In this document: positions 3,243 to 31,305 of the stretch, one piece after another
Layout of the letters: the number at the start of each line of letters is the position of its first letter
Numbering within the stretch: position 1 is the first letter of the stretch
Assembly (NCBI RefSeq): GCF_000284115.1
Contig: NC_017080.1
Location: 750,001 to 782,000 of the forward strand
Reading direction: 5' to 3'
Length of the DNA stretch: 32,000 nucleotides
DNA from: Phycisphaera mikurensis NBRC 102666
Lineage (GTDB): Bacteria > Planctomycetota > Phycisphaerae > Phycisphaerales > Phycisphaeraceae
Made by a program: the position numbers and the translations under genes
The notes under the pieces: generated by a model
What the model was told of the DNA's origin: nothing
The model's input: only the letters and a program-made list of their open reading frames with translations
Databases searched by the model: none

Positions 3243-5780
3243 TCACGCGTCACCTCCCGCCGGGGCGTCGCTCTTTCCGGTCTTCTTCTTCGCGAGCATG
3301 GCCCACACGCACAGGGCGGCGAGGCCGAGCACCGAGATCTCGCCGAGGGTGTCGAAGCCCCGGAAGTCCACGAGGATGACGTTGACGATGTTCCAGCCGC
3401 CGCCGCCGCGGCCCAGCTCGCCGGTCACCGGGTCTTCCACGCCCTTGTAGGTCGCCCGCACGAAGGCCTCGCCCAGCCGCGTTGGGGGATCCGCCGTCGC
3501 GGCGAGCAGCGTTAGCCAGCCGAGCGTGAGGCCCACCGCCGCCGAGAGCACCGGCCGCCAGGGGCCCGGCTTGCCGCAGGGCTTCGCGTCCGCGGGCAGC
3601 AGCCGCAGCGCCAGCACGAACAGCAGCACGGAGATGATCTCGAAGAACAGCTGCGTGAGGGCCAGGTCGGGCGCCTCGAAGAGCACGTACATCGCGACCA
3701 CCGCGAAGCCGCAGGCGCCCAGGAGCAGCACCCGGACGACGCGCTCCCGGGCGACCGGCAGCAGGAAGGCGGTGAGGCAGATCATGCCGCCCAGGAACAC
3801 GACCGGCCACGACTCCCCCGCGTCGGCGAGAGCCGCCAGCACCGCTTCGCTCATCGACCGGTCGCGTGCGTACGCCAGAGCGAATCCCGCGACGAGCACG
3901 GTGAGCACCACCGAGACGTAGTGACGGATCGAGCCGGTCTGGAGGTGTCGCTGCGCGAGGCCACCGAGTCCTTCCAGGCTTCCAGAGGCGAGGGGGAAGA
4001 TCCTCGTGTGAGCGTCGGGGTTCGCCCCGCGTAGGAGCGGCGACAGCCCCAGCGCAACGCCGGCCGCGATCGCCACCGCCGAGAGCAGGAGCTCGACGGA
4101 GAGGTGCGGGATCCACGGCACCTCGCCGTGGAAGCCGGGGTAGTGGATGTTGGTCTCGAAGGGCAGGAACAGGGCGTTCCACAGCGGCGTCGCCGTGCCG
4201 CCAACGAACTGCAACGCCACCAGCGGCACCGCCGGCAGCCAGATCATCGCCCCCCAGAGCCCGCCCTCGGCCGCGTGGTGATGCCCGTGGTCCTCGTGCC
4301 CGTGGCGGCCGTGCGTCGGCTTCATCCCGAAGCGCTCGCTCCCGAGCAGCGTCGTGGCCAGCCGCACGAAGATCGCCACGTTGCACATCGCCGTGAGCAG
4401 CGTGGCGACGAGCACGACGTACACCAGCGGGTGCTCCTTCGCCGCATGGACCACCGCGTAGAGGAAGATCTCCTTCGCCTGGAAGCTGATCGACAGCGGC
4501 AGCGCGGCGAGGCACCAGCCCGCCGCCAGCAGCACGCCGCAGATCGCCTTGTGCTTGTGGAAGGCTCCGAACAAGTCGGGCAGCTGCCGGCTGGCGACGT
4601 GGCCGATCGCGCCCGCGCAGATGAACAGCGGGGCCTTGTAGAAGGCGTGGTTGGCGATCTGCGTGACGTCGAAGTCGATCGCCGGCAGCACCTTCTCGTA
4701 GCCGTCGCCGGCGTACGCGTACGTGAGCCCGCCGAGCCCGTACATCGTCATCAGCAGGCCGAGCTGGGAGATCGTCGTGTACGCGAAGACCTGCTTGAGG
4801 TCGTGCTTGCACACCGCCATCACCCCGCCGAGGAGCATCGTGACGGTGCCGAAAGGGATGATCACCCCGGCCCAGCTGCTGATCGACACGCCATCGGTCG
4901 CGTCGCCGAAGGCCGGGAACAGCCGGCCCACGAGGAAGACGCCGGCCTTGACCATCGTCGCCGAGTGCAGGAAGGCGGACACCGGCGTCGGCGCCGCCAT
5001 CGCTCCCGGCAGCCAGTAGTGCAGCGGCCACTGGGCCGACTTCGCCGCCGCTCCGACGAACATGAACACGAAGCCGAGCACCACCCCCGTGCTGCCGAAG
5101 TCGACGTCGGCTCCGGCCAGCTCGCTCCAGCGCCACACGCCGGTGGTCGCTCCGAAGACTGCGATGCCGCCGAGCAGGAACATCCCGCCCAGCCCGGTCG
5201 TGAAGAAGGCTTGCACCGCCAGCTTGATCGCGTTGCGATCGTGCCGGTCCCAGCCGATCAGCAGGAACGAGCTGACCGAGGTGAGCTCCCAGAACACCAG
5301 CGTCAGCAGCGTGGAGTCCGCCAGAACCACCCCGAGCATCGCCGTGGTGAAGAAGCCCAGCGTCGCGTAGAAGCGGCGGAGGTCCAGCCGGGCCTGCTCG
5401 TCCGCCGCCCCGAAGTAGCCCCGGGCATAGAGCACGATCAGCACGCCGATGCCCGAGACCAGCAGCCCGAAGAACCCGCCGAGGCCGTTGGGCCACCACG
5501 AGAGGTTCAGGTTGAGGGATGGGATCCAAGGGACCGACGGCGGGGGTGCGGCGGAGACTGCCGGGGGTGTGGCGTAGGTCGCGTGCCCCGCGGCCGCTGC
5601 GCCCGCCGCGTCTGCGGCGGGCAGCGAGAGGTTCGACGCGATCAGCACGAAAGCCAGCAGCGGCCCGAGCATCGCCAGCAGCACCCGCGGCTTCACCGAC
5701 CGGCTCGGCAGCAGCAGCGACGCGAGCCCCGTCCCCAGCGGGAGCAGCACAGCCAGCAACAGGATCCAGACGACGCTCAT
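3243..5780 (-). CDS. mrpA: Mrp/Mnh antiporter subunit A (NuoL-like, with C-terminal MnhB-like domain)
   Basis: 845-aa polytopic ORF with an NuoL/MnhA-like core ([48 protein letters not shown]). The C-terminus ([13 protein letters not shown]) is typical of the MnhB domain fused in MrpA. Confidence 0.9.
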
Positions 5781-18670: not shown

Positions 18671-18722
18671 TTCGGGCGCGGCCGAGATCGAGGCCGAAAT
18701 CGGCGAAATCGGTGGCTGTCAC

Positions 18723-21700
18723 CTTTTCCGCTCCGCCCGCGTGGAGCGGGCGACTGGTCCACCATGAGCGGGTTGCCATGGTGCAGGGTGTTTCGATCCA
18801 CGCCCGCGTGGAGCGGGCGACACGAAGCGCTGCGAGAGCTGACGGCTGGCCAGAAGTTTCGATCCACGCCCGCGTGGAGCGGGCGACTCCGTCCGGCCGC
18901 ACCTCCTCCGGCATCGAAGCGTTTCGATCCACGCCCGCGTGGAGCGGGCGACCCGCCGCCGCCGCAAGCGACCCGCTGCCTGCAGGTTTCGATCCACGCC
19001 CGCGTGGAGCGGGCGACGGCCTTGTCGACGCCGATCGTCTTGTGCTCGCTGTTTCGATCCACGCCCGCGTGGAGCGGGCGACGGCAGGGTCCGCCGCGGA
19101 AGGACCTCGACCCGGCGTTTCGATCCACGCCCGCGTGGAGCGGGCGACGCTGCTGCCGCCGCCGGTGCTGGCCCCGGTGCTGGCGTTTCGATCCACGCCC
19201 GCGTGGAGCGGGCGACCGGGGATCATGTCGATCAGCGGCGCGATAACCGGTTTCGATCCACGCCCGCGTGGAGCGGGCGACACGTCTACGTGGAGCGTTG
19301 CCCGCGAGGCTTTGCGTTTCGATCCACGCCCGCGTGGAGCGGGCGACCGGAATCCCGCTTCTCTTTGTCGCGTTGCTTATGTTTCGATCCACGCCCGCGT
19401 GGAGCGGGCGACTTGAGCAACGGGAAGCGCTCTTGCATCCGTGAGTGTTTCGATCCACGCCCGCGTGGAGCGGGCGACCGGTCGATCTTGATGCTGTGCA
19501 TCGGGGGCTCCTGTTTCGATCCACGCCCGCGTGGAGCGGGCGACGGAAGCCGGCGTCCGCCTCGACCTCGAAACAGTTGTTTCGATCCACGCCCGCGTGG
19601 AGCGGGCGACGTTCGAGGCGGTCGAGGCGTTTCTCTCGGAGATCGTTTCGATCTACGCCCGCGTGGAGCGGGCGACGGCAGCCAAGAAACCGGGTCGTAG
19701 GTGAGGGTCGCGTTTCGATCCACGCCCGCGTGGAGCGGGCGACCCTCAGTACCAGGCACCATCGGCCGGCTCAGACTGTTTCGATCCACGCCCGCGTGGA
19801 GCGGGCGACCTCGGATCGCGTCGAAGTCCTTGCGCGAGTCGATGTTTCGATCCACGCCCGCGTGGAGCGGGCGACCGCGGTCCACGCCGCTCGCCGCGAG
19901 CGCCTTCGTGTTTCGATCCACGCCCGCGTGGAGCGGGCGACCAACTCCGGGAAGCGTCGTTTGACTACGTACCCGTTTCGATCCACGCCCGCGTGGAGCG
20001 GGCGACGCGGCGGCGCCGAGTGCCGACCCGGCCGGCGTCGTTTCGATCCACGCCCGCGTGGAGCGGGCGACCGGTCGATGTGAGGAGAAGAAGGGGCTGG
20101 AGCGGTTTCGATCCACGCCCGCGTGGAGCGGGCGACCACCAGCGGCGGTCTAGGGACCCGAGACGCCGAGTTTCGATCCACGCCCGCGTGGAGCGGGCGA
20201 CGGGGGGTGCGACCGACCCGCGGTCGATGTGAGGAGTTTCGATCCACGCCCGCGTGGAGCGGGCGACCCCCGTGGATCGTCCGCGTCTCGGCGTTCACCG
20301 AGTTTCGATCCACGCCCGCGTGGAGCGGGCGAAGAACATCGTGATCCCGTCGACCACCCGCGACGGGTTTCGATCCACGCCCGCGTGGAGCGGGCGACCC
20401 TCGGGGATCGTCGCCGCCGCGTCCGTCGTGGTGTTTCGATCCACGCCCGCGTGGAGCGGGCGACGCTCATCAGCTTGAGCTGCGCGAACTCCATCTCGTT
20501 GTTTCGATCCACGCCCGCGTGGAGCGGGCGACGCCCCAGCGGCCGCCACCAAGTGTCGCCCCAGGCGTTTCGATCCACGCCCGCGTGGAGCGGGCGACCT
20601 GCTCACCCCCGCGGCGGAACGCTCCGCGGATGTTTCGATCCACGCCCGCGTGGAGCGGGCGACGTGGGCAGGTACGTCGGCGTCTCGCCCGGGCGGGCGT
20701 TTCGATCCACGCCCGCGTGGAGCGGGCGACCAGGGCGTGGGCGCCGGCCATGTCGTCGGCGATGTTTCGATCCACGCCCGCGTGGAGCGGGCGACGAGCT
20801 GCTGGGGCGGCCTCTGCGGTCGGTGGCCGAGTTTCGATCCACGCCCGCGTGGAGCGGGCGACATCAGACCGTCGGCGAGGTGCTCGCCCCCCAGCTGGTT
20901 TCGATCCACGCCCGCGTGGAGCGGGCGACCCGAGGCGCCGGTCGAGTTCGGCGGTCCAGACGGTTTCGATCCACGCCCGCGTGGAGCGGGCGACCCCCAG
21001 GGGCCGCGGCTGGGCGTGTTCACGCGGTGGTTTCGATCCACGCCCGCGTGGAGCGGGCGACGGATGCCGGGCAGGTCGCCGCCGCCGGGCTCGGTGTTTC
21101 GATCCACGCCCGCGTGGAGCGGGCGACCTGCTCACCCCCGCGGCGGAACGCCCCGCGGATGTTTCGATCCACGCCCGCGTGGAGCGGGCGACCGAACTCG
21201 AACGCCGCCGACTCGTCCGCGCTCGTGTTTCGATCCACGCCCGCGTGGAGCGGGCGACCCGTGCGGGTGCGGGGGGAGGGCGTGACGTCAGAGTTTCGAT
21301 CCACGCCCGCGTGGAGCGGGCGACCCCCGCCCGCGGCTCCAACGGTCGCCGGCGGCTTGTTTCGATCCACGCCCGCGTGGAGCGGGCGACGCGTCTGCGG
21401 GAGGTGCGGCCCGGCGGGCCGCTGTTTCGATCCACGCCCGCGTGGAGCGGGCGACCACGCGTGGGAGATGCGTGAGCGCGAGGTTGACGGTTTCGATCCA
21501 CGCCCGCGTGGAGCGGGCGACCCCGCCCCGGACCGGCCATGAGCCCCGGGGTTGGGTTTCGATCCACGCCCGCGTGGAGCGGGCGACCTCCCGGACCAGC
21601 TGGAGCACGGAACCAGCATCGTGTTTCGATCCACGCCCGCGTGGAGCGGGCGACGGGCCGAGCGCTGGTGGACCACGATCTACAGGGCGTTTCGATCCAC

Positions 21701-22772
21701 GCCCGCGTGGAGCGGGCGACCCGGCCCAAGGGCCAGTGAGCGGGGGACCGCTTGTTTCGATCCACGCCCGCGTGGAGCGGGCGACGGCCCGGATGGGCGA
21801 CTTCCTGCCCCGCCTGCGGTTTCGATCCACGCCCGCGTGGAGCGGGCGACGCCACGGTCCGCGGAACCGGCCGATCGGTGGACATGTTTCGATCCACGCC
21901 CGCGTGGAGCGGGCGACCCCCGCCCGCGGCTACACCGGTCGCCGGCGGCTTGTTTCGATCCACGCCCGCGTGGAGCGGGCGACCAGTACCAGGCACCATC
22001 GGCCGGCTCAGAGACTGTTTCGATCCACGCCCGCGTGGAGCGGGCGACGGGGGCCACGATGGCGCCGGAGCGCCGGAGAGAGTTTCGATCCACGCCCGCG
22101 TGGAGCGGGCGACCCGGGCGCGTAACTGGATCCGTCGCGGAAAACGTTTCGATCCACGCCCGCGTGGAGCGGGCGACAGACCAACCCGTAGTCGCTCGCG
22201 GCCTCGCTGGAGTTTCGATCCACGCCCGCGTGGAGCGGGCGACGCCCATGCGTCCAGGTCGTCGTCGTCCGGGACCGGTTTCGATCCACGCCCGCGTGGA
22301 GCGGGCGACGAGGGGCCATCGTCTTCCGCGCCGCCATCGTCAGTTTCGATCCACGCCCGCGTGGAGCGGGCGACCCTCTTGCTCTCGACAAGGCTCTCGA
22401 CGCCGCCGAGTTTCGATCCACGCCCGCGTGGAGCGGGCGACGTGATCGCGTGCCATTCCTCGCTCAACCTGCGGGTTTCGATCCACGCCCGCGTGGAGCG
22501 GGCGACGGCTGTAGGTGCATCCCACCGCCCACGCCGACGCGTTTCGATCCACGCCCGCGTGGAGCGGGCGACGCGCATCTCGTACCAGTCGCCGTTCGTC
22601 ACCCCGAAGTTTCGATCCACGCCCGCGTGGAGCGGGCGACGGTATGCGACCTTCCGGCCGCCGCGTGCCGGACAGTTTCGATCCACGCCCGCGTGGAGCG
22701 GGCGACAGACCAACCCGTAGTCGCTCGCGGCCTCGCTGGAGTTTCGATCCACGCCCGCGTGGAGCGGGCGAC
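18723..22772 (-). CRISPR. Type I-C CRISPR array, 62 repeats / 61 spacers
   Basis: - **Repeat:** the 32-nt repeat is GTTTCGATCCACGCCCGCGTGGAGCGGGCGAC on plus. On minus it reads GTCGCCCGCTCCACGCGGGCGTGGATCGAAAC, with a 7-bp hairpin and an 11-nt TGGATCGAAAC handle. The ...ATCGAAAC end is typical of I-C.
- **Spacers:** 32-36 nt, hand-enumerated.
- **Polarity:** the repeat at 18723-18754 is degenerate (7 mismatches), marking the leader-distal end. The leader and cas2 abut the 22772 end. Confidence 0.97.
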
Positions 22773-22972
22773 GGCTCCATCCTAAGCGGTGGCTCAGGCG
22801 GAGTTTGAGGACGCGTTTCCGCGAACCTCGGTGCCCGCGCGGCCGGAGTCGAGCCGGCGGCGGGGGCGAGGGGACTCTTTGGCTGTCAGAGAGCGGCTCA
22901 GGGGGCTTCGCGAACCCACCCGGGTGCGGGTGCGCGCTGCGGGTTCGCGGAGGGAGGGGGCGGGCCTCGGAA
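22773..22972 (-). promoter_or_regulatory. CRISPR leader (cas2 stop to first repeat)
   Basis: 200 bp of non-coding sequence between cas2 and the intact, leader-proximal repeat R61. It contains a 9-bp inverted repeat, CGCGAACCC (22909-22917) / GGGTTCGCG (22941-22949). No clear -35/-10 was found by eye. Confidence 0.6.
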
Positions 22973-23301: not shown

Positions 23302-24351
23302 TCAGCGCCAGAGGAAGTCGGGGTAGGCGTCGTGGTCGCCGCGGAGGTGCCGGGCGAGCAGGCGGGCCTGGACGTGGGGCACGAGGCCCAGCTCGATCTT
23401 CTCGCCGATGAACGGGTGCATCAACTCGTCCCGCTTCCGCTCCTGGTAGGCGGTGAGCGCGGTGCGCCGGCCGGCCTCGGTGAGGAAGACGGCGCCCGAG
23501 GCGTGCGGCTCGAAGGAGCCGGCTTTGACCTGGCCGCGGTTGATGAGCGACAGCGTCAGCCGGTCGGCGAGCACGGGCCGCAGCGACTCCATCAGGTCCA
23601 GCGCGAGCGACGGCCGGCCGGGGCGGTCGCGGTGCAGGAAGCCGACGGCGGCGTCGAGCCCGGCGGCTTCGCAGGCGGAGCGGCAGTCGTGGGCGAGCAG
23701 CGTGTAGAGGAAGGACAGCAGGGCGTTGGTGCGGTTCAGCGGCGGGCGGCGGGAGCGCTTCTCGAAGCGGAAGGCGTCGCCGCCGGCCCGGATCAGGCCG
23801 TCGAAGGCGCGGAAGTAGGAGGCGCCGCTCTCGCCCTCGACGCCGCGGAGCCGGTCGAGCGAGGTGGCGGTCATGGCGAGGCGGGCGTCGTCGGCCATCC
23901 GCTGCGCGGTGGCCGCGGGGTCGGTCGGCCGCCCGGCGTCGGGCGTCGGATCTGCGGACGGGTGGTCGCGGGCGGCCCGCAGCAGCACGGTCCGCGTGTT
24001 GGCGATTTTGGCGGCGACGATCGGCCGGGCGATGAGCAGCGACGCTTCCTCCGAGTCCGCCCGCCGGTACTGCTCCCGCCGCAGCAGCACGTTCCCGGGG
24101 CTGAAGCCCTGGACCGCGGCGAGGAAGCGGCCGCGGCGGTCGAGCATGGAGAAGCGGACGCCGGCTCTCGCGCACGCCCCTTGCAGGAAGGGGCTGGCGG
24201 AGACCTGGCCGAAGGTCACGACGCCGTCGAGCTGGTGCAGCGGCACGCGGAGCGCGGTCTTCTTCTCGATGCGGACGACCACGGCGTCGCCCTCTTTGCG
24301 GAGGTACGCCCCCTGGGTCTGCACGAACAGCGTATTCAGGAGGCGCTTCAC
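23302..24351 (-). CDS. cas1: CRISPR-associated integrase Cas1 (type I-C)
   Basis: 349 aa from GTG 24351 ([26 protein letters not shown]...). Cas1 motifs are present ([11 protein letters not shown], [23 protein letters not shown]). The GTG overlaps the cas4 stop (GTGA). Confidence 0.92.
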
Positions 24352-25052
24352 GCGGAGCCCGCCTTCAGGCTCCGGGCCAGCTCCCGGTCGAAGCGGGCGG
24401 CGGCGGAGCCGTCGCGGCCACCCTGCTTGGGCATGCACACGCGGATGAGCGAGCAGCGGTCGCACTTCGCGCTCTCGTACACCGCGGCGGGCGTGCGGCC
24501 CGATCCGAGCAGTTCGTGCAACCGGGCGGCGGTCGCGGCGGTGAGCGTGCGGAGGCGCAGATCGAAGACGACCGGCTCGCGCCGGCGAACCTTCCCGTAG
24601 AAGAGGTGGCCGGAGGCGATCTCCAGCCCGAGCATCTCCTCCAGGCACAGCGCCTGGGCGCACAGCTGCACGCGGTCGGCCTGGTGCGCCTTGGGCTTGC
24701 CCCGCTTGTACTCCACCGGGCGGACCGCCCCCGGAGCGGCAGTGGCTCCGGAACCCTCGGCGGGGTCGTCGAACTCCACCACGTCGGCCTGGCCGATGAG
24801 CCCGTGCTCGAAGGAGCGGAGCGGCAGCCCGCGGGTGGTGCGTCGGCCGGGTCCGCCGTCTCGGCCGGGCCGGTGCTCCTTGGCTGTGTCGTCGTGCGCC
24901 TTCTCGTGCAGCACGCGGCCCTCGGCGGTGAGGCGGTTCTCCTCCCACTCCTGCTCGTTGTGGATGAGCGCGCACTGGCGGGGGCAGAAGAAGAGGTGCT
25001 GGAGGGCGGAGATGGGCCGGAGGTCGGCTTCGGCGAAGGAGGTGCTTGCCAT
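24348..25052 (-). CDS. cas4: CRISPR-associated exonuclease Cas4 (RecB-like, Fe-S cluster)
   Basis: 234 aa. N-terminal Cys ([10 protein letters not shown]), a C-terminal [10 protein letters not shown] cluster, and a [11 protein letters not shown] nuclease motif. Confidence 0.9.
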
Positions 25053-25070
25053 CCCGGAGTCACGCAGCTA

Positions 25071-25106
25071 CGGTAGCAGCATGCTGATACCAGCCAGTAA
25101 AGTGAA
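25071..25106 (-). promoter_or_regulatory. Predicted Cascade docking site: TTC PAM plus partial protospacer for the orphan crRNA-like element
   Basis: The minus strand reads 5'-TTC (25106-25104) then ACTTTACTGGC (25103-25093). The pseudo-spacer starts ACTTTGCTGGC, so 10/11 match with the mismatch at position 6, and 20/33 match overall. PAM and seed lie within the 17-nt spacer of a weak minus-strand promoter candidate, TTGGCT (25115-25110) / TGGTAT (25092-25087), 35 nt or more upstream of the cas4 ATG. The PAM-distal end of the site also covers a weak plus-strand candidate -10 (TACGGT, 25069-25074) and the start of the small ORF. Confidence 0.45.
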
Positions 25107-25311
25107 AGAAGCCAACGACCTTGACCCCGCTCTCCTGGGAGCCTTCCGAGAGATGGGAGTTGGAGTCGAGACCATCGTTCATGACGTGAAAGCGTCACAC
25201 ACACTGTCGGATCGGGTTGCCGCTCGGCTCGGGGGAATCCACCTCCCGGTGGACCTGCTGATTGAGAGGCTCCTCGATCTCAATTCTCGCGGCTTTCTCC
25301 GAGGTAGTTAA
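25081..25311 (+). CDS. Hypothetical 76-aa ORF antisense to the cas operon, in the cas7-cas4 gap (coding status uncertain)
   Basis: ATG 25081 to TAA 25311: MLIPASKVKEANDLDPALLGAFREMGVGVETIVHDVKASHTLSDRVAARLGGIHLPVDLLIERLLDLNSRGFLRGS. I counted GC3 at about 60%, which appears much lower than the strongly G/C-ending codons of neighbouring genes. I recognise no family. It ends 3 nt before the orphan repeat. Confidence 0.25.
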   Translation: MLIPASKVKEANDLDPALLGAFREMGVGVETIVHDVKASHTLSDRVAARLGGIHLPVDLLIERLLDLNSRGFLRGS

Positions 25312-25314
25312 GAG

Positions 25315-25372
25315 GTCGCCCGAGGGCGTGGATTGAAATACTTTGCTGGCGAGACGCAGCAAGATCCGGTCT
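25315..25372 (+). ncRNA. Orphan hairpin-shortened CRISPR repeat (25315-25339) plus spacer-like segment (25340-25372): candidate CreA/CreR-like crRNA-resembling regulator
   Basis: GTCGCCCGAGGGCGTGGATTGAAAT versus the array repeat GTCGCCCGCTCCACGCGGGCGTGGATCGAAAC. The 5' GTCGCC is shared and the stem is reduced to CGCC-CGAG-GGCG. The handle TGGATTGAAAT matches 9 of 11 positions. It lies on the strand opposite the array and cas genes. The downstream 33 nt has the PAM-flanked seed match at 25106-25071. Confidence 0.55.
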
Positions 25373-25395
25373 TCGGCATCTCGCTGGAGGCCGGC

Positions 25396-26298
25396 TTACT
25401 CGGCAACCCATCGCTCCACGCTGACGCCCTCGGGCAGGTCGGCCTCGTCGACCGTGAGCTCGAAGTCCGCGAAGCGGCGGGCGGGCTCGGCGGCGTTGGG
25501 GTCTCTCCGCTTCGCCTCCACGCGGCGGAAGAGCTGGTCAGCCCGCGCGTTGCCCAGGCGGTGCTCGTGGCGGAAGGCGATGCAGGCCCGCGGGGCCATC
25601 GTGCCGCGGGCGGCGGAGCGGTCGTGCTCGAACATCTGGTCGAGGGCACGCTTGAAGAGGTTGAGGTCGTCTTCGCTGAAGCCGGTCTGCTGGGCGAGCG
25701 GGGCGTTGACGAAGCCGTGGACGCGGTAGAGGGCGTAGGGCACGGTGAACTTGCGGCCCATGGTGCGGTTGTCACCGTCTTGAGCGGCCGACTCCTTCTC
25801 GGTGGTGACGGCGCAGCGGGTGACGGCGTGCTCGGCGGGCACGATGGGCTCCAGGCTCCGGGCGATGCCCAGCTGCACGGGGCCGCGGACCTGGCCGCAG
25901 TTGACGCCGGTGGTCATGACGGCCCCGAAGGTGCGGATGTCGTAGAAGTTCTTGCACATCCACGCGGTGAGCTCGCGGTCCTTGGCCGCCTTCTCGTCGC
26001 CCTTGTCCTTCCGCTTCTTGGCGTCGACCGAAACGTCAAGTGCCTTGTAAGCCCGCTCGTGCTGCTGGTTGAGGATCGCCTTCTCCCGCACGTAGATCTC
26101 GTGCGGCGGCTCACCCTCGTGAACCAGCTGCACGTAGTTGCGGACCTTCCGCTTGAGGCAGACGTCGGTGACGAGGCCGTGGCCGGTCTCGGGGTCGACG
26201 CGCGGCAGGTTCCCGGCGTCGGGGTCGCCGTTGGGGTTGCCGTCGGTGACGTCGAAGAAGTAGGCGAAGTCGTAGCGGTGGGCGAGGGGTTCAGGCAT
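25396..26298 (-). CDS. cas7: Type I-C Cascade backbone subunit Cas7c (Csd2)
   Basis: ATG 26298 ([55 protein letters not shown]), the highly conserved Csd2 N-terminus. The start overlaps the cas8c end by 8 nt (ATGCCTGA). Confidence 0.93.
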
Positions 26299-28192
26299 AA
26301 GTGGCGGCTCCGGAAGGGGCGGTGGTGGTTTCGGTGCCGGCGGCGTCTCGATCGCCGGCTTCGGTGTCAAGCCCCCCGGGAACACGCTTGCGGAAGAAGT
26401 CCTGCGTCTGGTGGTGATAGCCGATCGCGAAGAGGCCCTGGTCCTCCATCGCGAGGTGGCGGGGGAAGCCGTCGAGGCGGTCGAAGACCTCGCCGATCTG
26501 CTTCTCCAGCCAGACGGCGCGGCCGGGACTCTCGCGGCGGAGCTTCCCGGCGTGGTTGCCGTTGAGCCGCGAGAGGCGGGGGAAGACCGCCGCGGGCGTG
26601 GAGGAGGCGGTGGCGAAGAAGCTGTCCCGGATCGTCCGGTTCAGGCCCTTGCCCTGAGCTTCCTGTTGGGCACGCTCGTACAGGGCGAAGAGACGCCCGA
26701 GGACGTAGGGCGGGTCGCTGCGGTCGGGATCGAGAGCCACGGGGATCTCCGGCTTGTGGGGGAAGAGGCGGTTGAGCCAGGCCCGCAGGATCGCGGCGCG
26801 GTTGGCGTTGACGACGGGATCGGCCCGCATCCGCCGGAGCACGCCGGCGGCGAGGTTCTGCGGGTAGGGAACACCGGTGAGGACCGCGCGGAGGAGGTCG
26901 CCCTCCAACCGCGGCGGAACGTCCTTGGCGTCGCGGACGGTCTCGCGGAGCATCGCCTGGACGCTGAGCGGGCGGTCGTCGTCGCGGCGGCCGACGATCT
27001 CCAATCCGCGGACGTGCGCAGCGAGGTGCTCCGCGAACGCTCCAGTGGTGGAACGGAGGAAGAAGCGGATGCTGATCCTTGCCGCGTTGGGGGCGAGGCC
27101 GAGGAGGAAGAAGCGGTGGCCCGGCTCCTCGAGTTCCGCGGACTGAGCGGCCGGGAGGCCCTGACGCAGCCGGTGGAGGAAGCCGGAGACGGCGGTCCGC
27201 GTCTCGTGGGCGGTGGGGGAGTCGTCGATGAAGCCGCTCTTGTTTGCCGCGTAGAGGAAGTCGTTCACCAACCCCGTTGCGAGCGGGGCGATCGGGTTGG
27301 ACGCTCGCTCCGACCACAGCACGCAGGTGGTGTCGCCGAGGCGGATGCGGCTGCGTTCGTCGCCGAGCAGGTGGTTGAGCGCAGTGCAGTAGGCGAAGGC
27401 GGCGGCCTCGGAGGTCGGGGCATTGCGACCGTCGGTGTGACCTTGCGAGAGATAAGCAGAATCGTTGAAGGAGACGATCAGGCCGCCGGAGGACTGGCCG
27501 CCGAGCACGCCCTTGATCTTGGGCTCGTGCAAGCGAGCGAGCGGGCCGGTGCGGCCGGTGACCAAGCACATGCCGGCGGGCGCCGCGTCGTCGCCGGCTG
27601 CGGCGTCGGCTGGCGCCTCCAGCGTGGCCCGCCAAAACGCGTCGACGGCGGGCCGCTCGTGGACGTCTTGCCGCTCGCCGCTGAGGCGGAAGACGCCGAA
27701 GCCGGGGCCGTCGAGGTTCTCGCGGCCGGGCGTGTCCGGGAGGCGGGCCGGATCCCACGCTTCCAGGAAGCGGCAGACGGCGGCGTAGCCCGCATCGTCG
27801 ATGGCCTCCTCCAGCGCCAGGTGCCGCTCCCGCAGGGCGGCGAAGCTCTCGGCGGCCCGGGCGACCTTCTTCTCGTCTTCGGGATCGGCGGGCAGGCCCA
27901 GCAGGTACGCGGGGTTGTCCCAGAGGAAGCAGGGGTTCAGGCCCGAGCCGGACGGCTTCGCCTGCCCCGGCACGATCCGCTCCGCCGGCCGCGGCTTTCC
28001 CTTGCCGCCGCTCTCCTGCATGCGGGACTCGATCTGCACGAGTGAGCCGTCGGGCTCGAGCACCACGGCGAAGCTGACCTTCTGCTGGCTGTAGCCGTAG
28101 CGGGCGATGCGCGGGGCGGTGTCGCTGCCGTGGGCGCGTTCCTCCTGGGCGACGAGGCGGTCGTAGTGCTCGGCGAGGGCCTGGAGGATCAT
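26291..28192 (-). CDS. cas8c: Type I-C Cascade large subunit Cas8c (Csd1)
   Basis: 633 aa with the [14 protein letters not shown] start typical of Csd1. It sits between cas5c and cas7c. The ATG overlaps the cas5 stop (ATGA). Confidence 0.9.
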
Positions 28193-28878
28193 GCGACCAC
28201 CTCCGGGAGCGAGCCCTCGCCACCCGTGTCAACGGCCGCAGCGGGGTGCATCGGGGGCACGTCGATCACGCCGTCGACCATCTTCGCCCGGAAGAAGCGG
28301 GCGGCGCGGTCACGCGTGTAGTCGAAGTCGAGCATCGTCCAGCCGAGGTCGATCTCGCCTTGCAGCTCCTCCGGGCACGCGGGCGGGGCCGCGGGATCGG
28401 CCGGCTCGAAGTCGGCGAGGAACTCGCGGCAGCCCAGGTACGGGTGTTGGAAGCACTGCCCTTTCTTCGCCCGGCGGTTGAACTGGTCGAGGTGCTTGCC
28501 GGGGGTGCGGGGGCCCGAGAGGATGTCGAAGCGGGCCTGGATGACGTATGCCACGTCACGCAGCAGCGTGGCCGCCCGTTGCTGCCGCTCGTCCTCGACG
28601 GTGATCCCCAGCGTTCCGCGACCGGCTTTCATCGCCGACCTCGCGTTGGTGGCGGAGGCCTTTGCGCCGACTTCGTTGCGGCGGAGCGTGGTCCAGCGGA
28701 TCGGCTTCAGCACGCGGATCCGCTCGATCACCCACCGGATCTCCGGCTTCCAGTAGATCGCCTCCAGCACGCCGCGGGCGGCGGAGGGGGTGATGACGTC
28801 GTAGCTGACCCGCTCGACCTTCATCTCGGGCCGGGTGAAGCACGCGAGGTCGCCGGAGACTTGAAGATAAATGGACAT
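28189..28878 (-). CDS. cas5: Type I-C Cas5c (Cas5d) pre-crRNA endoribonuclease / Cascade subunit
   Basis: 229 aa. MSIYLQVSGDLACFTRPEMKVERVSYDVITPSAARGVLEAIYWKPEIRW is the canonical Cas5c N-terminus. No cas6 is present, as expected for I-C. Confidence 0.92.
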   Translation of the reverse strand: MSIYLQVSGDLACFTRPEMKVERVSYDVITPSAARGVLEAIYWKPEIRWVIERIRVLKPIRWTTLRRNEVGAKASATNARSAMKAGRGTLGITVEDERQQRAATLLRDVAYVIQARFDILSGPRTPGKHLDQFNRRAKKGQCFQHPYLGCREFLADFEPADPAAPPACPEELQGEIDLGWTMLDFDYTRDRAARFFRAKMVDGVIDVPPMHPAAAVDTGGEGSLPEVVA

Positions 28879-28989: not shown

Positions 28990-31305
28990 TCAGCAAACCA
29001 GCCCGCCCGGGGCGTTCAGCACGTCGTCCCGCAGGCCCAGCGCCTCGTCGTACGCCTCGGGCCGGAGCAGGTAGAAGGCCGGCTCCTCGCCCTCGGGGGT
29101 GAAGCCGGGCCGGATCACGGCGTTCTCGTCGAGCCGGTCGCGCTGGTTGTGGTAGACCGCGACAGTGTGCCGCTGGGCCTCGCGGAGGAGGTCGAAGCGT
29201 GGCTCCTCCGCCTCGGTCAATGCCGCAACGATCCGCCGGCCCTCCTCGCTGTAAGGCACGACGACCGGCGTGGTGGCGCTGTCGATCCAGCGGAAGCGGG
29301 AGGCGGCCTCGCGGAAGTTGTGGTGGTGCGCATCGGTCCCGTCCCGCTGGTCTGGCAGGAAGCCGCCGAAGCAGGGCATCACGTCGTGGGTGTCCCAGGG
29401 CGTCACCCCCGGCCCGGGGTTCTTCCAGAGGTGCTCCTCGAAGTAGGCGCGGATCGCCTCCGGCTGCAGCGGGTCGGGGTGGGCGGAGAGCAGCCCCCGG
29501 GCGATTTCCACGCCGCTCTTGACGCCTGGAGGCGGAGCGTGATCGGTCTCGAAGACGACGACGCGGCCAAGACCGCTCAGCCGGCCCTCGCGGTTGGCCC
29601 GGCCGGCGGCCTGGGCGACGGAGTCGAAGCCGGCGAGGGCCCGGTACACGACGGGGAAGTCGACGTCGACGCCGGCCTCCACCACCGTGGTGGAGATCAC
29701 CAGGCAGGGCTCGCCCGCACGCAGCCGCCGCTTCACCTCCGCGACGCGGTCGCTGCGGTGGGCCGGGCACATCGCGGCGGAGAGGTGCAGGGCATCGGGT
29801 CGACGCTCCCGCAGCCGCTCCAGCACGGCGGCGGCGTGTCTGCGGGCGTTGACGATGCACAGGGCCGCGGGCTCGCGGGCGAGGCGGTCGGCGAGTTCCT
29901 CGTCGGTGAGGTGTCCGGCGGGCTCGACCGCCACCCGCCGCATCGCCTCGAAGAGCCGCTCGGGCTCGGGAACGATGCGGGTGATCCGCTCGGGCGGGAT
30001 GCCGATGGCGAAGCCCTCCCGCCGGGCAACGGCGGGCTGCGTGGCGGTGCAGAGAACGACGGTGCAGCCGAAGTTGCGGACGAGCTCATCGAGTGCGGCG
30101 AGCACCGGCCGCATCAGGCCGGGCGGGATCGCTTGCGCCTCGTCGAGGATCAGGATGGCGTTGGCGAGCCGGTGCAGCTTGCGGCAGGGCGTGCCGTGGC
30201 TGGCGAACAGCGACTCGAAGAGCTGCACGTTGGTGGTGACGACCAGCGGGGCCGCCCAGTTCTCGGTGGCGAGCTGGGCGGCGAAAGACACGCCCCCGGG
30301 GTCGAGGCTGCTGTGGTGCTCGAGCACGACGGGTTCGCCACGCCGCGCCTCCAGGTCGCGGAAAACCTCCCGGTACCTCTCGGCGGTCTGCTCGATGATG
30401 CTTGTGAACGGCAGGGCGCAGACGATGCGCCGCTGGCCGGTGTGGCGGGCGTGGTCGAGCGCGAAACGGAGCGAGGCGAGCGTCTTGCCGCCGCCGGTGG
30501 GCACCTCCAACGTGAACCAGCCGGCGCCCTTCTTCGCGGCCGCGCGGCACGCGGCCAGCACGCCGGCCCGGGCGGCATCGACGGGCGACGGATCGCCCGT
30601 GCGGCCCGCCAGCAGCTCCGCCATCGACGCATCGAGCGCCGCGGACATCGCTTCCGCGTCGAGGTCCGGTCGCGCGGGCCGCCGGGCGTGCCCCGCGGGG
30701 TCGCTGAACCGCTGCGTGCAGAGCCGGTCGGCGTCGACCAGGCAGCTGAAGAGCATCCGTGTGAGGAAGGCGGTGGTGTGGCCGCCGAGCTCCTCCGCTC
30801 CGGGCCAGCGGATCGGTCCGACGGCCGCGGCTTGCGCGTCGTCCCAGGGGCTTTCGAAGCCGGGATCGTGCGGCTCGATGCGCTTGCGCTGCGGATCGAG
30901 CCGAGCCTCCAGGTCGCGGTCGCGAGCGGCGTCGGTCTGCCAGTCGGGCAGGTGCCCGTGGTGGCCGGCGACCGCGGCGGCGAGGCACGGCCCCAGCACG
31001 GGGCCGAGTTGATCCGCGGCGTAGCGCGCCCCGGCCGTGGCGTGGTCGACGCGTGCCCGGGGCCGCTGTGCCTCGCCCTCGGCTGCCGCCTCGTCGACCC
31101 CCGCTCCCAGCACCTTTTCCTGGAAGGCGAAGGTGGCTTTGCCGAGATCGTGCCAACGCCCGAGCGCATGCGCGAGCGGGCCGCACCCGAACGCTTCGCC
31201 GAATGCCGAAGCCGCGTCCGCGACTTCGCGGAGGTGGGTCGCGAGCGGTTCCCAGTGCTCGCGGCCGGCGGGGTGGGTGTGCGCGTAGAACATGCACCGC
31301 AGCAT
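28990..31305 (-). CDS. cas3: Cas3 HD nuclease / SF2 helicase
   Basis: 771 aa. N-terminal HD domain (YAHTHP...HDLGKATFAFQ). Helicase motifs include Walker A-like PTGGGKT, the DEAQ box (ILILDEAQ) and VVEAGVDVDF. An alternative start is ATG 31293. Confidence 0.93.
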   Translation of the reverse strand: MLRCMFYAHTHPAGREHWEPLATHLREVADAASAFGEAFGCGPLAHALGRWHDLGKATFAFQEKVLGAGVDEAAAEGEAQRPRARVDHATAGARYAADQLGPVLGPCLAAAVAGHHGHLPDWQTDAARDRDLEARLDPQRKRIEPHDPGFESPWDDAQAAAVGPIRWPGAEELGGHTTAFLTRMLFSCLVDADRLCTQRFSDPAGHARRPARPDLDAEAMSAALDASMAELLAGRTGDPSPVDAARAGVLAACRAAAKKGAGWFTLEVPTGGGKTLASLRFALDHARHTGQRRIVCALPFTSIIEQTAERYREVFRDLEARRGEPVVLEHHSSLDPGGVSFAAQLATENWAAPLVVTTNVQLFESLFASHGTPCRKLHRLANAILILDEAQAIPPGLMRPVLAALDELVRNFGCTVVLCTATQPAVARREGFAIGIPPERITRIVPEPERLFEAMRRVAVEPAGHLTDEELADRLAREPAALCIVNARRHAAAVLERLRERRPDALHLSAAMCPAHRSDRVAEVKRRLRAGEPCLVISTTVVEAGVDVDFPVVYRALAGFDSVAQAAGRANREGRLSGLGRVVVFETDHAPPPGVKSGVEIARGLLSAHPDPLQPEAIRAYFEEHLWKNPGPGVTPWDTHDVMPCFGGFLPDQRDGTDAHHHNFREAASRFRWIDSATTPVVVPYSEEGRRIVAALTEAEEPRFDLLREAQRHTVAVYHNQRDRLDENAVIRPGFTPEGEEPAFYLLRPEAYDEALGLRDDVLNAPGGLVC

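Follow-up and report, generated by a model that had tools for sequence, protein, structure and literature searches.

What occupies the 343 nucleotides (nt) between cas7 and cas4 in the type I-C CRISPR-Cas locus of NC_017080.1, positions 750,001 to 782,000 (the 32,000-nt stretch analysed here, referred to below as the window and numbered from its first nucleotide), and why does this gap carry a small open reading frame (ORF) and a solitary CRISPR repeat on the strand opposite to the cas genes? The answer that we favour, with moderate confidence, is that the gap is a horizontally acquired cassette of three parts, namely a promoter, a gene for a 69-aa protein and a guide unit, and that the gene is a cargo repressed by Cascade in a manner resembling the CrePA and CreTA modules. 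A first-pass annotation of the window had already described positions 25081-25380 as a low-GC island of about 57%. This description agrees with the measured value of 57.3%, which is below that of the flanking cas genes (cas4 72.9%, cas7 69.0%); the whole gap (25053-25395) has a GC content of 59.2% and the window 72.1%. The elements on which the argument depends are the following:

25053-25395: inserted cassette, 343 nt, 59% GC, from the cas7 stop to the cas4 start, delimited by breaks in blastn homology and by GC content
25046-25051, plus strand: -35-like hexamer TTGCCA, the reverse complement of which supplies the cas4 start codon (ATGGCAA)
25069-25074, plus strand: weak -10-like hexamer TACGGT, at 17-nt spacing
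25071-25103, minus strand: predicted protospacer-like target of the pseudo-spacer, with a 20/33 match
25104-25106, minus strand: protospacer-adjacent motif (PAM) 5'-TTC-3' of type I-C, immediately 5' of the protospacer
25102-25311, plus strand: small protein gene, 69 aa from GTG 25102 (76 aa from the alternative ATG 25081), a new family with four predicted helices
25315-25339, plus strand, antisense to the cas operon: solitary degenerate repeat (PsiR), GTCGCCCGAGGGCGTGGATTGAAAT, composed of GTCGCCCGAGGGCG and the 11-nt handle TGGATTGAAAT (25329-25339)
25340-25372, plus strand: pseudo-spacer (PsiS), with its seed at 25340-25350 (ACTTTGCTGGC)
25366-25394, plus strand: 3' hairpin of 12 base pairs (bp), closing the crRNA-like unit, with its end immediately in front of the cas7 stop codon

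The cas7-cas4 gap in related loci

The gap is an insertion, because in the nearest Cas7 relatives cas7 and cas4 are found 4-20 nt apart. A protein search identified three closest loci (L161, L162/L163 and L164), in which Cas7 is 88-89% identical and the CRISPR repeat is the same as that of the window, and which share 79-89% DNA identity with the window across cas7 and cas4-cas1-cas2. The cas7-cas4 spacing is only 4-20 nt in L161, L162 and L164, and blastn homology to these loci breaks off at approximately 25406 (25383 in L162) towards the gap from cas7, and at 25039 towards it from cas4. The cassette is also absent from four more Phycisphaerae-type loci (L166, L170, L174 and L175).

The same cassette was found in five lineages: the window, L165, L003, L173 and an L168-type lineage made up of L168, L169, L171 and L172, the latter three being identical to L168 at the pseudo-spacer. 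In each case it is located in the cas7-cas4 gap, antisense to the cas genes, with a GC content 13-18 points under that of the host locus, and its architecture is conserved. Read along the cas-antisense strand, this architecture consists of a -35-like hexamer, a 17-nt spacer, a -10-like hexamer, the complement of a 33-nt protospacer ending in GAA (that is, the TTC PAM on the cas-sense strand), a start codon, an ORF of 66-76 aa, a solitary repeat that has its handle intact, a pseudo-spacer and a strong hairpin. At the cas4 edge of the cassette (window 25046-25052, and likewise in L165, L173 and L168), the cas4 start codon and the codon after it read, in reverse complement, as the -35-like hexamer (TTGCCAT / ATGGCAA), which indicates that the inserted cassette replaced the original cas4 N-terminus and now provides the cas4 start codon.

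The solitary repeat and its guide unit

PsiR is the sole repeat-like element of the window outside the array. Compared with the array repeat, it lacks 7 internal nt but has kept its 11-nt 5' handle almost intact, 9 of the 11 positions of TGGATTGAAAT being matched in the array handle TGGATCGAAAC, and it begins 3 nt after the end of the ORF. A minus-strand repeat-like match at 25237-25253, of low score and inside the ORF, was taken as a chance occurrence. In L003, L173 and L168 the stem of the solitary repeat is full length. The stems of these three repeats are unlike those of their own arrays in sequence (for L003, at 4966-4996, GCCTGA/TCAGGC versus GCCCGC/GCGGGC), and we read the differences as compensatory changes that keep the hairpin.

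A second flanking repeat (PsiR2) was sought after the pseudo-spacer, where only the hairpin was found. As read from the sequences, the window hairpin exhibits one two-sided compensatory change with respect to L165, while L003, L173 and L168 possess a hairpin and a U-tract terminator at the equivalent place (the U-tract of L173 and L168 likewise being read from the sequences). The repeat follows the ORF stop at a distance of 3-10 nt in the window, L003 and L173, and the scan detected no promoter between the two. Owing to this short distance and the lack of a detectable promoter within it, the guide is probably cotranscribed with the small gene and cut from the 3' end of the very mRNA that it would repress.

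The predicted Cascade target

The sequence that follows PsiR (ACTTTGCTGGCGAG...) matches TTC followed by ACTTTaCTGGCtgG... on the minus strand at 25106-25071, and this site is the best non-self match of PsiS in the window. Positions 1-5 and 7-11 pair (10/10 of the non-flipped seed positions), the mismatches at positions 6 and 12 fall on flipped-out positions, and most distal positions are mismatched. TTC plus ACTTTNCTGGC occurs once in the 32-kb window (25093-25106, minus strand), and no other seed match was found there, including upstream of cas3, cas5 and cas8. The first-pass annotation had proposed that a target at 25071-25103 covers the -10 hexamer and the ORF start; indeed, the predicted target spans the -10 hexamer, the region of the transcription start site (TSS) and the start codon of the small gene, and it lies 19-54 nt upstream of the cas4 ATG.

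Comparison of the five lineages lends this prediction further weight. The TTC PAM is present at the equivalent place in all five, and in four of them the PsiS seed matches a TTC-flanked site at the 5' end of the small gene. These seed/target pairs read ACTTTgCTGGC/ACTTTaCTGGC in the window and L165, ATGTTGTTG/ATGTTGTTG in L173, and ATGTTgTTG/ATGTTaTTG in L003. The pairs differ between lineages and co-vary, giving three seeds, each with its matching target. The distal parts of pseudo-spacer and target in L003, L173 and L168 are still recognisably related, albeit offset by indels, and this relatedness fits a guide that was derived from its target and then degraded to prevent a full R-loop. In L168 (3984-3997; identical in L169, L171 and L172), the pseudo-spacer opens with a perfect 14-nt palindrome, ACCTTGATCAAGGT.

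The individual elements of the window cassette are identical to those of L165 to the following extent:

PsiR: 24/25 (96%)
First 12 nt of PsiS: 11/12 (92%)
Target seed and PAM: 14/15 (93%)
Distal PsiS (positions 13-26): 8/14 (57%)
Distal protospacer: 11/21 (52%)
Promoter spacer: 59%

By this comparison PsiR, the PsiS seed, the PAM and the target seed are the most conserved non-coding elements of the cassette. Selection on the handle, the seed and the PAM, but not on the remainder, is what a regulatory crRNA-like RNA is expected to show.

The promoter and the start codon

The plus-strand promoter suggested in the first-pass annotation fared well in part: both hexamers are present at a 17-nt spacing and their position is conserved in all five lineages, but the pair falls below the sigma-70 threshold. 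Its -35-like equivalents are TTGCCA (L165, identical), TTGCAT (L173), TTGACA (L168) and TTGACT (L003), each of them overlapping or adjoining the cas4 ATG, and its -10-like equivalents are TACCTT (L165), TAGAAT (L173), TAGATA (L168) and TATACT (L003), with a spacing of 17 nt throughout. L003 is the sole lineage in which the pair passes the promoter scan (10/12, with an extended TG).

Three lineages, the window and L165 with GTG and L173 with ATG, have a start codon that overlaps the PAM/seed junction; the start codon is positioned directly after the PAM in L003 and after the PAM plus 4 nt in L168. Because this conserved layout places the start codon at the PAM/seed, the window gene probably starts at GTG 25102 and encodes 69 aa. 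With such a start, the mRNA would probably have a leader of approximately 21 nt rather than being leaderless, as had been supposed and now seems doubtful, and the ATA codon at 25087 would be located in the 5' leader and inside the target.

The small protein

The ORF had been described as spanning 25081-25311 and encoding 76 aa, with a GC content at third codon positions (GC3) of about 60%, ATA as its third codon and an end 3 nt before the orphan repeat, all of which is correct. Its GC3 of 0.60 compares with 0.90-0.94 in five of the six cas reading frames (the sixth, at 0.74, has coordinates that are perhaps out of frame). The ATA at 25087, third codon of the 76-aa ORF, is as rare as anticipated, being used in the cas genes only once in 2520 codons.

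Among 1.8 billion representative proteins searched exhaustively with HMMER, there was a sole true homologue, P0121 (71% identity, E 2e-25); a second match, P0122, was rejected as a low-complexity false match. The contig that encodes P0121 (L165, 532 nt) covers the homologous gap in full, between the cas4 start and the cas7 end. The window and L165 ORFs are of equal length and exhibit 18/8/36 differences at codon positions 1/2/3, corresponding to pN (non-synonymous differences per site) 0.19, pS (synonymous) 0.50 and a dN/dS ratio of 0.26. More distant members of the family, with 26-30% identity and collinear over their full length, reside in the same gap and antisense orientation in L003, L173 and L168/L169/L171/L172, the family homologues being P0121, P0123 and P0124. 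L003 and L173 share 59% identity, with 27/12/53 differences at the three codon positions and saturated synonymous sites. Since the ORF is conserved and under purifying selection, it is, on this sequence evidence, a real protein-coding gene.

The same homologous gaps speak differently on the second small ORF proposed for this region, a minus-strand frame at 25182-25060. Its coordinates are correct, except that it ends 7 nt rather than 8 nt before the cas4 ATG, and it is unconstrained: in the region of overlap, pN/pS is 0.19/0.12 (approximately 1.6) in its own frame versus 0.11/0.39 in the plus frame. It is therefore no gene but the antisense shadow of the constrained plus-strand ORF.

The family has few known members. 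A word-indexed protein search with the 76-aa ORF gave no match, a profile search with four family members found no proteins beyond the three already known, and a hidden Markov model search of all ORFs in 172 loci revealed no further members. No significant match for the small protein was obtained in Pfam, NCBIfam, PADLOC, PHROGs or PDB sequence searches, and neither the window protein nor P0121 has a Pfam match at E <= 10. A first AlphaFold2 model, built from two sequences, was poor (predicted local distance difference test, pLDDT, 68) and its Foldseek matches were noise. The four-sequence alignment produced a confident four-helix AlphaFold model (pLDDT 89, predicted TM-score, pTM, 0.76), for which neither PDB nor BFVD yielded a fold match with E < 1. 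The protein is a compact helical domain, predicted to be soluble, with an isoelectric point near neutral, and no transmembrane or enzymatic features were detected in it. A winged-helix motif considered for its C-terminus was dropped, since the structure model gives no support for it. According to the model, then, the small protein adopts a novel four-helix fold without detectable relatives in the libraries searched.

Proposed mechanism and role of the cargo

We infer a circuit that comprises repeat processing, Cascade binding, repression, co-transcription of guide and gene, and toxicity. Cas5c would cut PsiR 5' of the 11-nt handle, between 25328 and 25329, and the resulting crRNA-like RNA, closed by its 3' hairpin, would be loaded into type I-C Cascade. 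The complex would then bind the TTC-flanked site at 25071-25106 via a seed-only match and occlude the -10/TSS and the start codon, such that the small gene is repressed, while the limited pairing would avoid Cas3 recruitment and cleavage. Production of the small protein would follow the loss of Cascade or its inhibition, for instance by an anti-CRISPR. If, as is probable, the guide is embedded in the mRNA that it represses, the circuit would be self-limiting. Relative to the small gene, the guide pairs with the non-template strand, reportedly the orientation in which type I Cascade is the stronger roadblock; relative to cas4, it pairs with the template strand, reportedly the weaker orientation. 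Repression of the small gene by Cascade is, in our opinion, likely.

By analogy with CrePA and CreTA, and because toxins are found at the same junction elsewhere, the protein most probably inhibits growth or provides some other stress output. The narrower claim that it is a toxin is a finely balanced one, which we put forward tentatively. It is our leading guess and leans on the sporadic occurrence of the cassette, its foreign composition, its CrePA/CreTA-like logic and the toxins at this junction in other loci. Among 160 type I-C loci (L001-L160), about half possess more than 100 nt, and often 450-1300 nt, between cas7 and cas4, and the longest ORFs in those gaps include PIN, ParE, HicA, HepT, DUF4258 and DUF5615 toxins, in addition to ORF6N and Uma2 (ten examples were verified with Pfam). 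The cas7-cas4 junction thus looks like a hot spot for the insertion of toxin-antitoxin and other cargo. Strong sense-strand repeat-like matches were also observed in the gaps of two of these loci (L076, gap 149-177, score 31; L078, gap 532-563, score 30), and they could represent further candidate crRNA-like RNAs, arranged differently.

A more far-reaching version of the proposal would make the cassette the first type I-C addiction or anti-anti-CRISPR module of the CreTA type with a protein toxin from a new four-helix family, with the guide in the 3' untranslated region (UTR) and a single site that couples Cascade availability to both a kill switch and the adaptation genes. In this combined form we consider it rather unlikely.

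A number of observations weigh against the Cascade-repressed toxin. The small protein resembles no known toxin, and its best fold matches, which are not significant, are Myb/trihelix DNA-binding domains (query-normalised TM-score, TMq, 0.56-0.57, E ~3). In a standard sigma-70 scan no promoter of the window reaches the threshold, the conserved hexamer pair upstream of the small gene included. The stem of the window PsiR measures only 4 bp and is missing from the minimum-free-energy fold. No separate promoter was found for the guide, and a guide transcribed from the promoter that it represses would entail leaky steady-state expression. In L168 the PAM and only 5 nt of the seed match before a 2-nt indel interrupts the alignment. 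Finally, the family is tiny, with five sequence variants on ten contigs. The cassette of the L168 lineage is either a decayed or a differently working version.

Alternative explanations

The proposed regulation could govern something other than a toxin: a small regulator or effector, for instance a DNA-binding helical protein, an anti-anti-CRISPR factor or a defence activator, which would be released when free Cascade is low. The compact, soluble four-helix fold predicted by the model would suit such a role, as would the near-neutral isoelectric point, the lack of transmembrane or enzymatic features and the weak resemblance of the top fold matches to Myb/trihelix domains, and crRNA-like RNAs of type I-C supervise defence systems that are not toxins (bioRxiv 10.1101/2024.12.27.630466). 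However, those matches are not significant, and the sporadic distribution, low GC content and atypical codon usage of the cassette are a better fit for a selfish addiction module; toxin-antitoxin toxins, moreover, dominate the cas7-cas4 junction in other loci. We retain a non-toxin cargo as an unlikely alternative, albeit one to be taken seriously. It is also conceivable, with still lower probability, that the relevant output is the adaptation genes themselves, as in CreR: Cascade at 25071-25106 would halt polymerase short of cas4-cas1-cas2, whether it had come from cas7 or started at a promoter inside the gap, and acquisition would be tuned to Cascade levels. The position of the target so close upstream of the cas4 ATG speaks for this, as does the cassette-borne cas4 start codon; furthermore, cas4 directly follows cas7 in the cassette-free relatives, which implies that cas4-cas1-cas2 transcription in the window probably crosses the bound site. 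The form in which such autoregulation had been suggested, through a minus-strand promoter composed of TTGGCT (25115-25110) and TGGTAT (25092-25087), did not survive: the hexamers are present but fail the sigma-70 scan and are lost in L165 (where TTGGCT has become TTTTGT and TGGTAT AGGGAC), and no sense-strand promoter was found in the gap of the window, L003 or L168. In addition, the guide pairs with the cas4 template strand, said to be the weaker roadblock orientation, and regulation of the adaptation genes leaves the conserved protein gene in every cassette unexplained. A polar effect of bound Cascade on these genes is nonetheless possible, because cas4-cas1-cas2 is reached only across the bound site and the cassette gives cas4 its start. 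A weak terminator-like site on the minus strand (25128..25108, 3 GC pairs; 1 found versus 0.3 expected) was given no weight.

Two further explanations dispense with Cascade or with function altogether. The PsiS seed (25340-25350) is complementary to the small-gene mRNA at 25093-25103, with a G-U pair at position 6, and the complementarity reaches into the GTG start; pairing between RNAs, whether in cis or in trans, is accordingly possible besides DNA targeting. If such pairing were the whole of the mechanism, PsiS RNA (ACUUUGCUGGC as its seed), either in cis within the 3' UTR or free, would act on the initiation region of the small gene in the manner of a type I toxin-antitoxin system. RNA pairing needs no PAM, however, and yet the TTC is kept beside the seed in five of five lineages despite a differing coding context. 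The nearly invariant 11-nt handle points to Cascade loading, and the only mismatches within the PAM-proximal 12 nt are at positions 6 and 12, those flipped out in Cascade. Antisense control independent of Cascade hence appears very improbable. We assign the lowest probability of all to a decaying remnant, in which the orphan repeat and the ORF would be left over from a rearrangement of an array or operon and be functionless now: the repeat is indeed truncated, the promoter weak and most of the seed match lost in the L168 lineage, but two independent pairs show purifying selection on the ORF, it is the handle, seed and PAM that have been conserved selectively, and the architecture is the same across lineages whose synonymous sites are saturated.

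Comparison with known systems

The Cascade-repressed cargo gene, which we continue to prefer, has precedents. To our knowledge, few CRISPR-guarded modules have been proven, these being CreTA of types I-B and I-F, CrePA of type I-F and the defence cargos of type I-C. In CrePA, a type I-F module of Acinetobacter baylyi ADP1, a Cascade-repressed protein toxin is combined with the CreA RNA (bioRxiv 10.1101/2024.01.05.574328; PMC12737573). The cassette resembles it in that a small protein gene is situated in the cas operon beside a crRNA-like gene, a pseudo-spacer partly matches the start of that gene at a cognate PAM, and repression without cleavage is expected. It differs from CrePA in system and site (type I-C and the cas7-cas4 gap, as opposed to type I-F and the cas3-csy1 gap), in having one repeat and a 3' hairpin in place of two flanking repeats, and in the position of the guide, which immediately follows the gene and for which no promoter of its own is evident. 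Furthermore, CreP possesses a KilA-C domain, whereas the window protein has neither KilA-C homology nor detectable relatives.

Closer in type are the I-C systems in which Cascade employs single-repeat crRNA-like RNAs, with an 11-nt handle, a 3' hairpin and a TTC PAM, to repress cargo promoters (bioRxiv 10.1101/2024.12.27.630466). In the CRISIS loci of Neisseria (Nezha, Gabija; same source), the solitary repeat, the 11-nt handle, the 3' hairpin, the TTC PAM and a cargo-promoter target in the cas operon all recur as in the window. Those loci, however, carry multi-gene defence cargos between cas3 and cas5c, as opposed to a single 69-aa protein between cas7 and cas4 in antisense, and their Neisseria host contrasts with the Phycisphaerae-like host here.

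The logic of the type I-B CreTA of haloarchaea is likewise the same, in that a degenerate mini-CRISPR guides Cascade to the promoter of a neighbouring toxin via a seed-only match. The first-pass annotation had suggested a CreTA-like module, and this stands as regards a cargo under a Cascade site specified by the orphan repeat, but not as regards the rare-codon RNA mechanism: CreT is an RNA toxin, a rare-codon mini-ORF that sequesters tRNA, while the ORF of the window evolves as a protein. Its single ATA is not conserved, being replaced by GTC in L165, and is probably upstream of the real GTG start. CreR (types I-B, I-E and V-A; bioRxiv 10.1101/2023.03.10.532045) is similar to the guide unit as a crRNA-like RNA that originates from the cas locus and acts by a partial match. 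CreR targets the promoter of the effector genes, whereas the guide unit is directed at a non-cas gene, at its 5' end; were cas4-cas1-cas2 affected, this would be a by-product of the roadblock.

The regulatory principle is already known; what is new is the protein family, the cas7-cas4 site, the head-to-head antisense layout with cas4, the apparent 3' UTR guide and the phylum. CRISPR-guarded toxin and cargo modules explain the upkeep of costly CRISPR systems and the responses of cells to anti-CRISPRs. To these modules the cassette would add a new cargo family, a new phylum (the closest Cas7 relatives being Phycisphaerae) and a new integration site, cas7-cas4, which is filled by classical toxins elsewhere in type I-C. 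With promoter, target, gene and guide within 343 nt, it would be compact enough for reuse as a sensor of Cascade activity, and it raises the possibility that effector occupancy gates the adaptation genes.

The surrounding CRISPR-Cas locus

The minus strand of the window encodes a complete type I-C CRISPR-Cas system in the order cas3-cas5c-cas8c-cas7-gap-cas4-cas1-cas2-array, of which the following features were located:

28990-31305, minus strand: cas3
28189-28878, minus strand: cas5c
26291-28192, minus strand: cas8c
25396-26385, minus strand: cas7/csd2 (NCBIfam TIGR02589), convergent with the small gene
24348-25052, minus strand: cas4 (NCBIfam TIGR00372), divergent from the small gene
18790-22773: CRISPR array of approximately 61 repeats, with the crRNA-sense repeat GTCGCCCGCTCCACGCGGGCGTGGATCGAAAC

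The listed cas7 ORF is 329 aa long, versus 300 aa for the database gene call (P0001). Among reference genomes, the nearest Cas7 relatives are those of metagenome-assembled genomes of the Phycisphaeraceae (67-73% identity). Judged by these Cas7 neighbours, the host is probably a planctomycete, and an actinobacterial host, considered at first, was rejected on the same ground. The array holds duplicated repeat-spacer-repeat units, 22146-22244 versus 22675-22773 and 20564-20663 versus 21093-21192 (100% and 98% identical, respectively), which suggests either internal duplication or repeated acquisition of the same spacer. At the cas2-distal end of the array (18711-18754), a degenerate terminal repeat (…CCGCTCCGCCCGCGTGGAGCGGGCGAC) is present, as expected for a trailer end.

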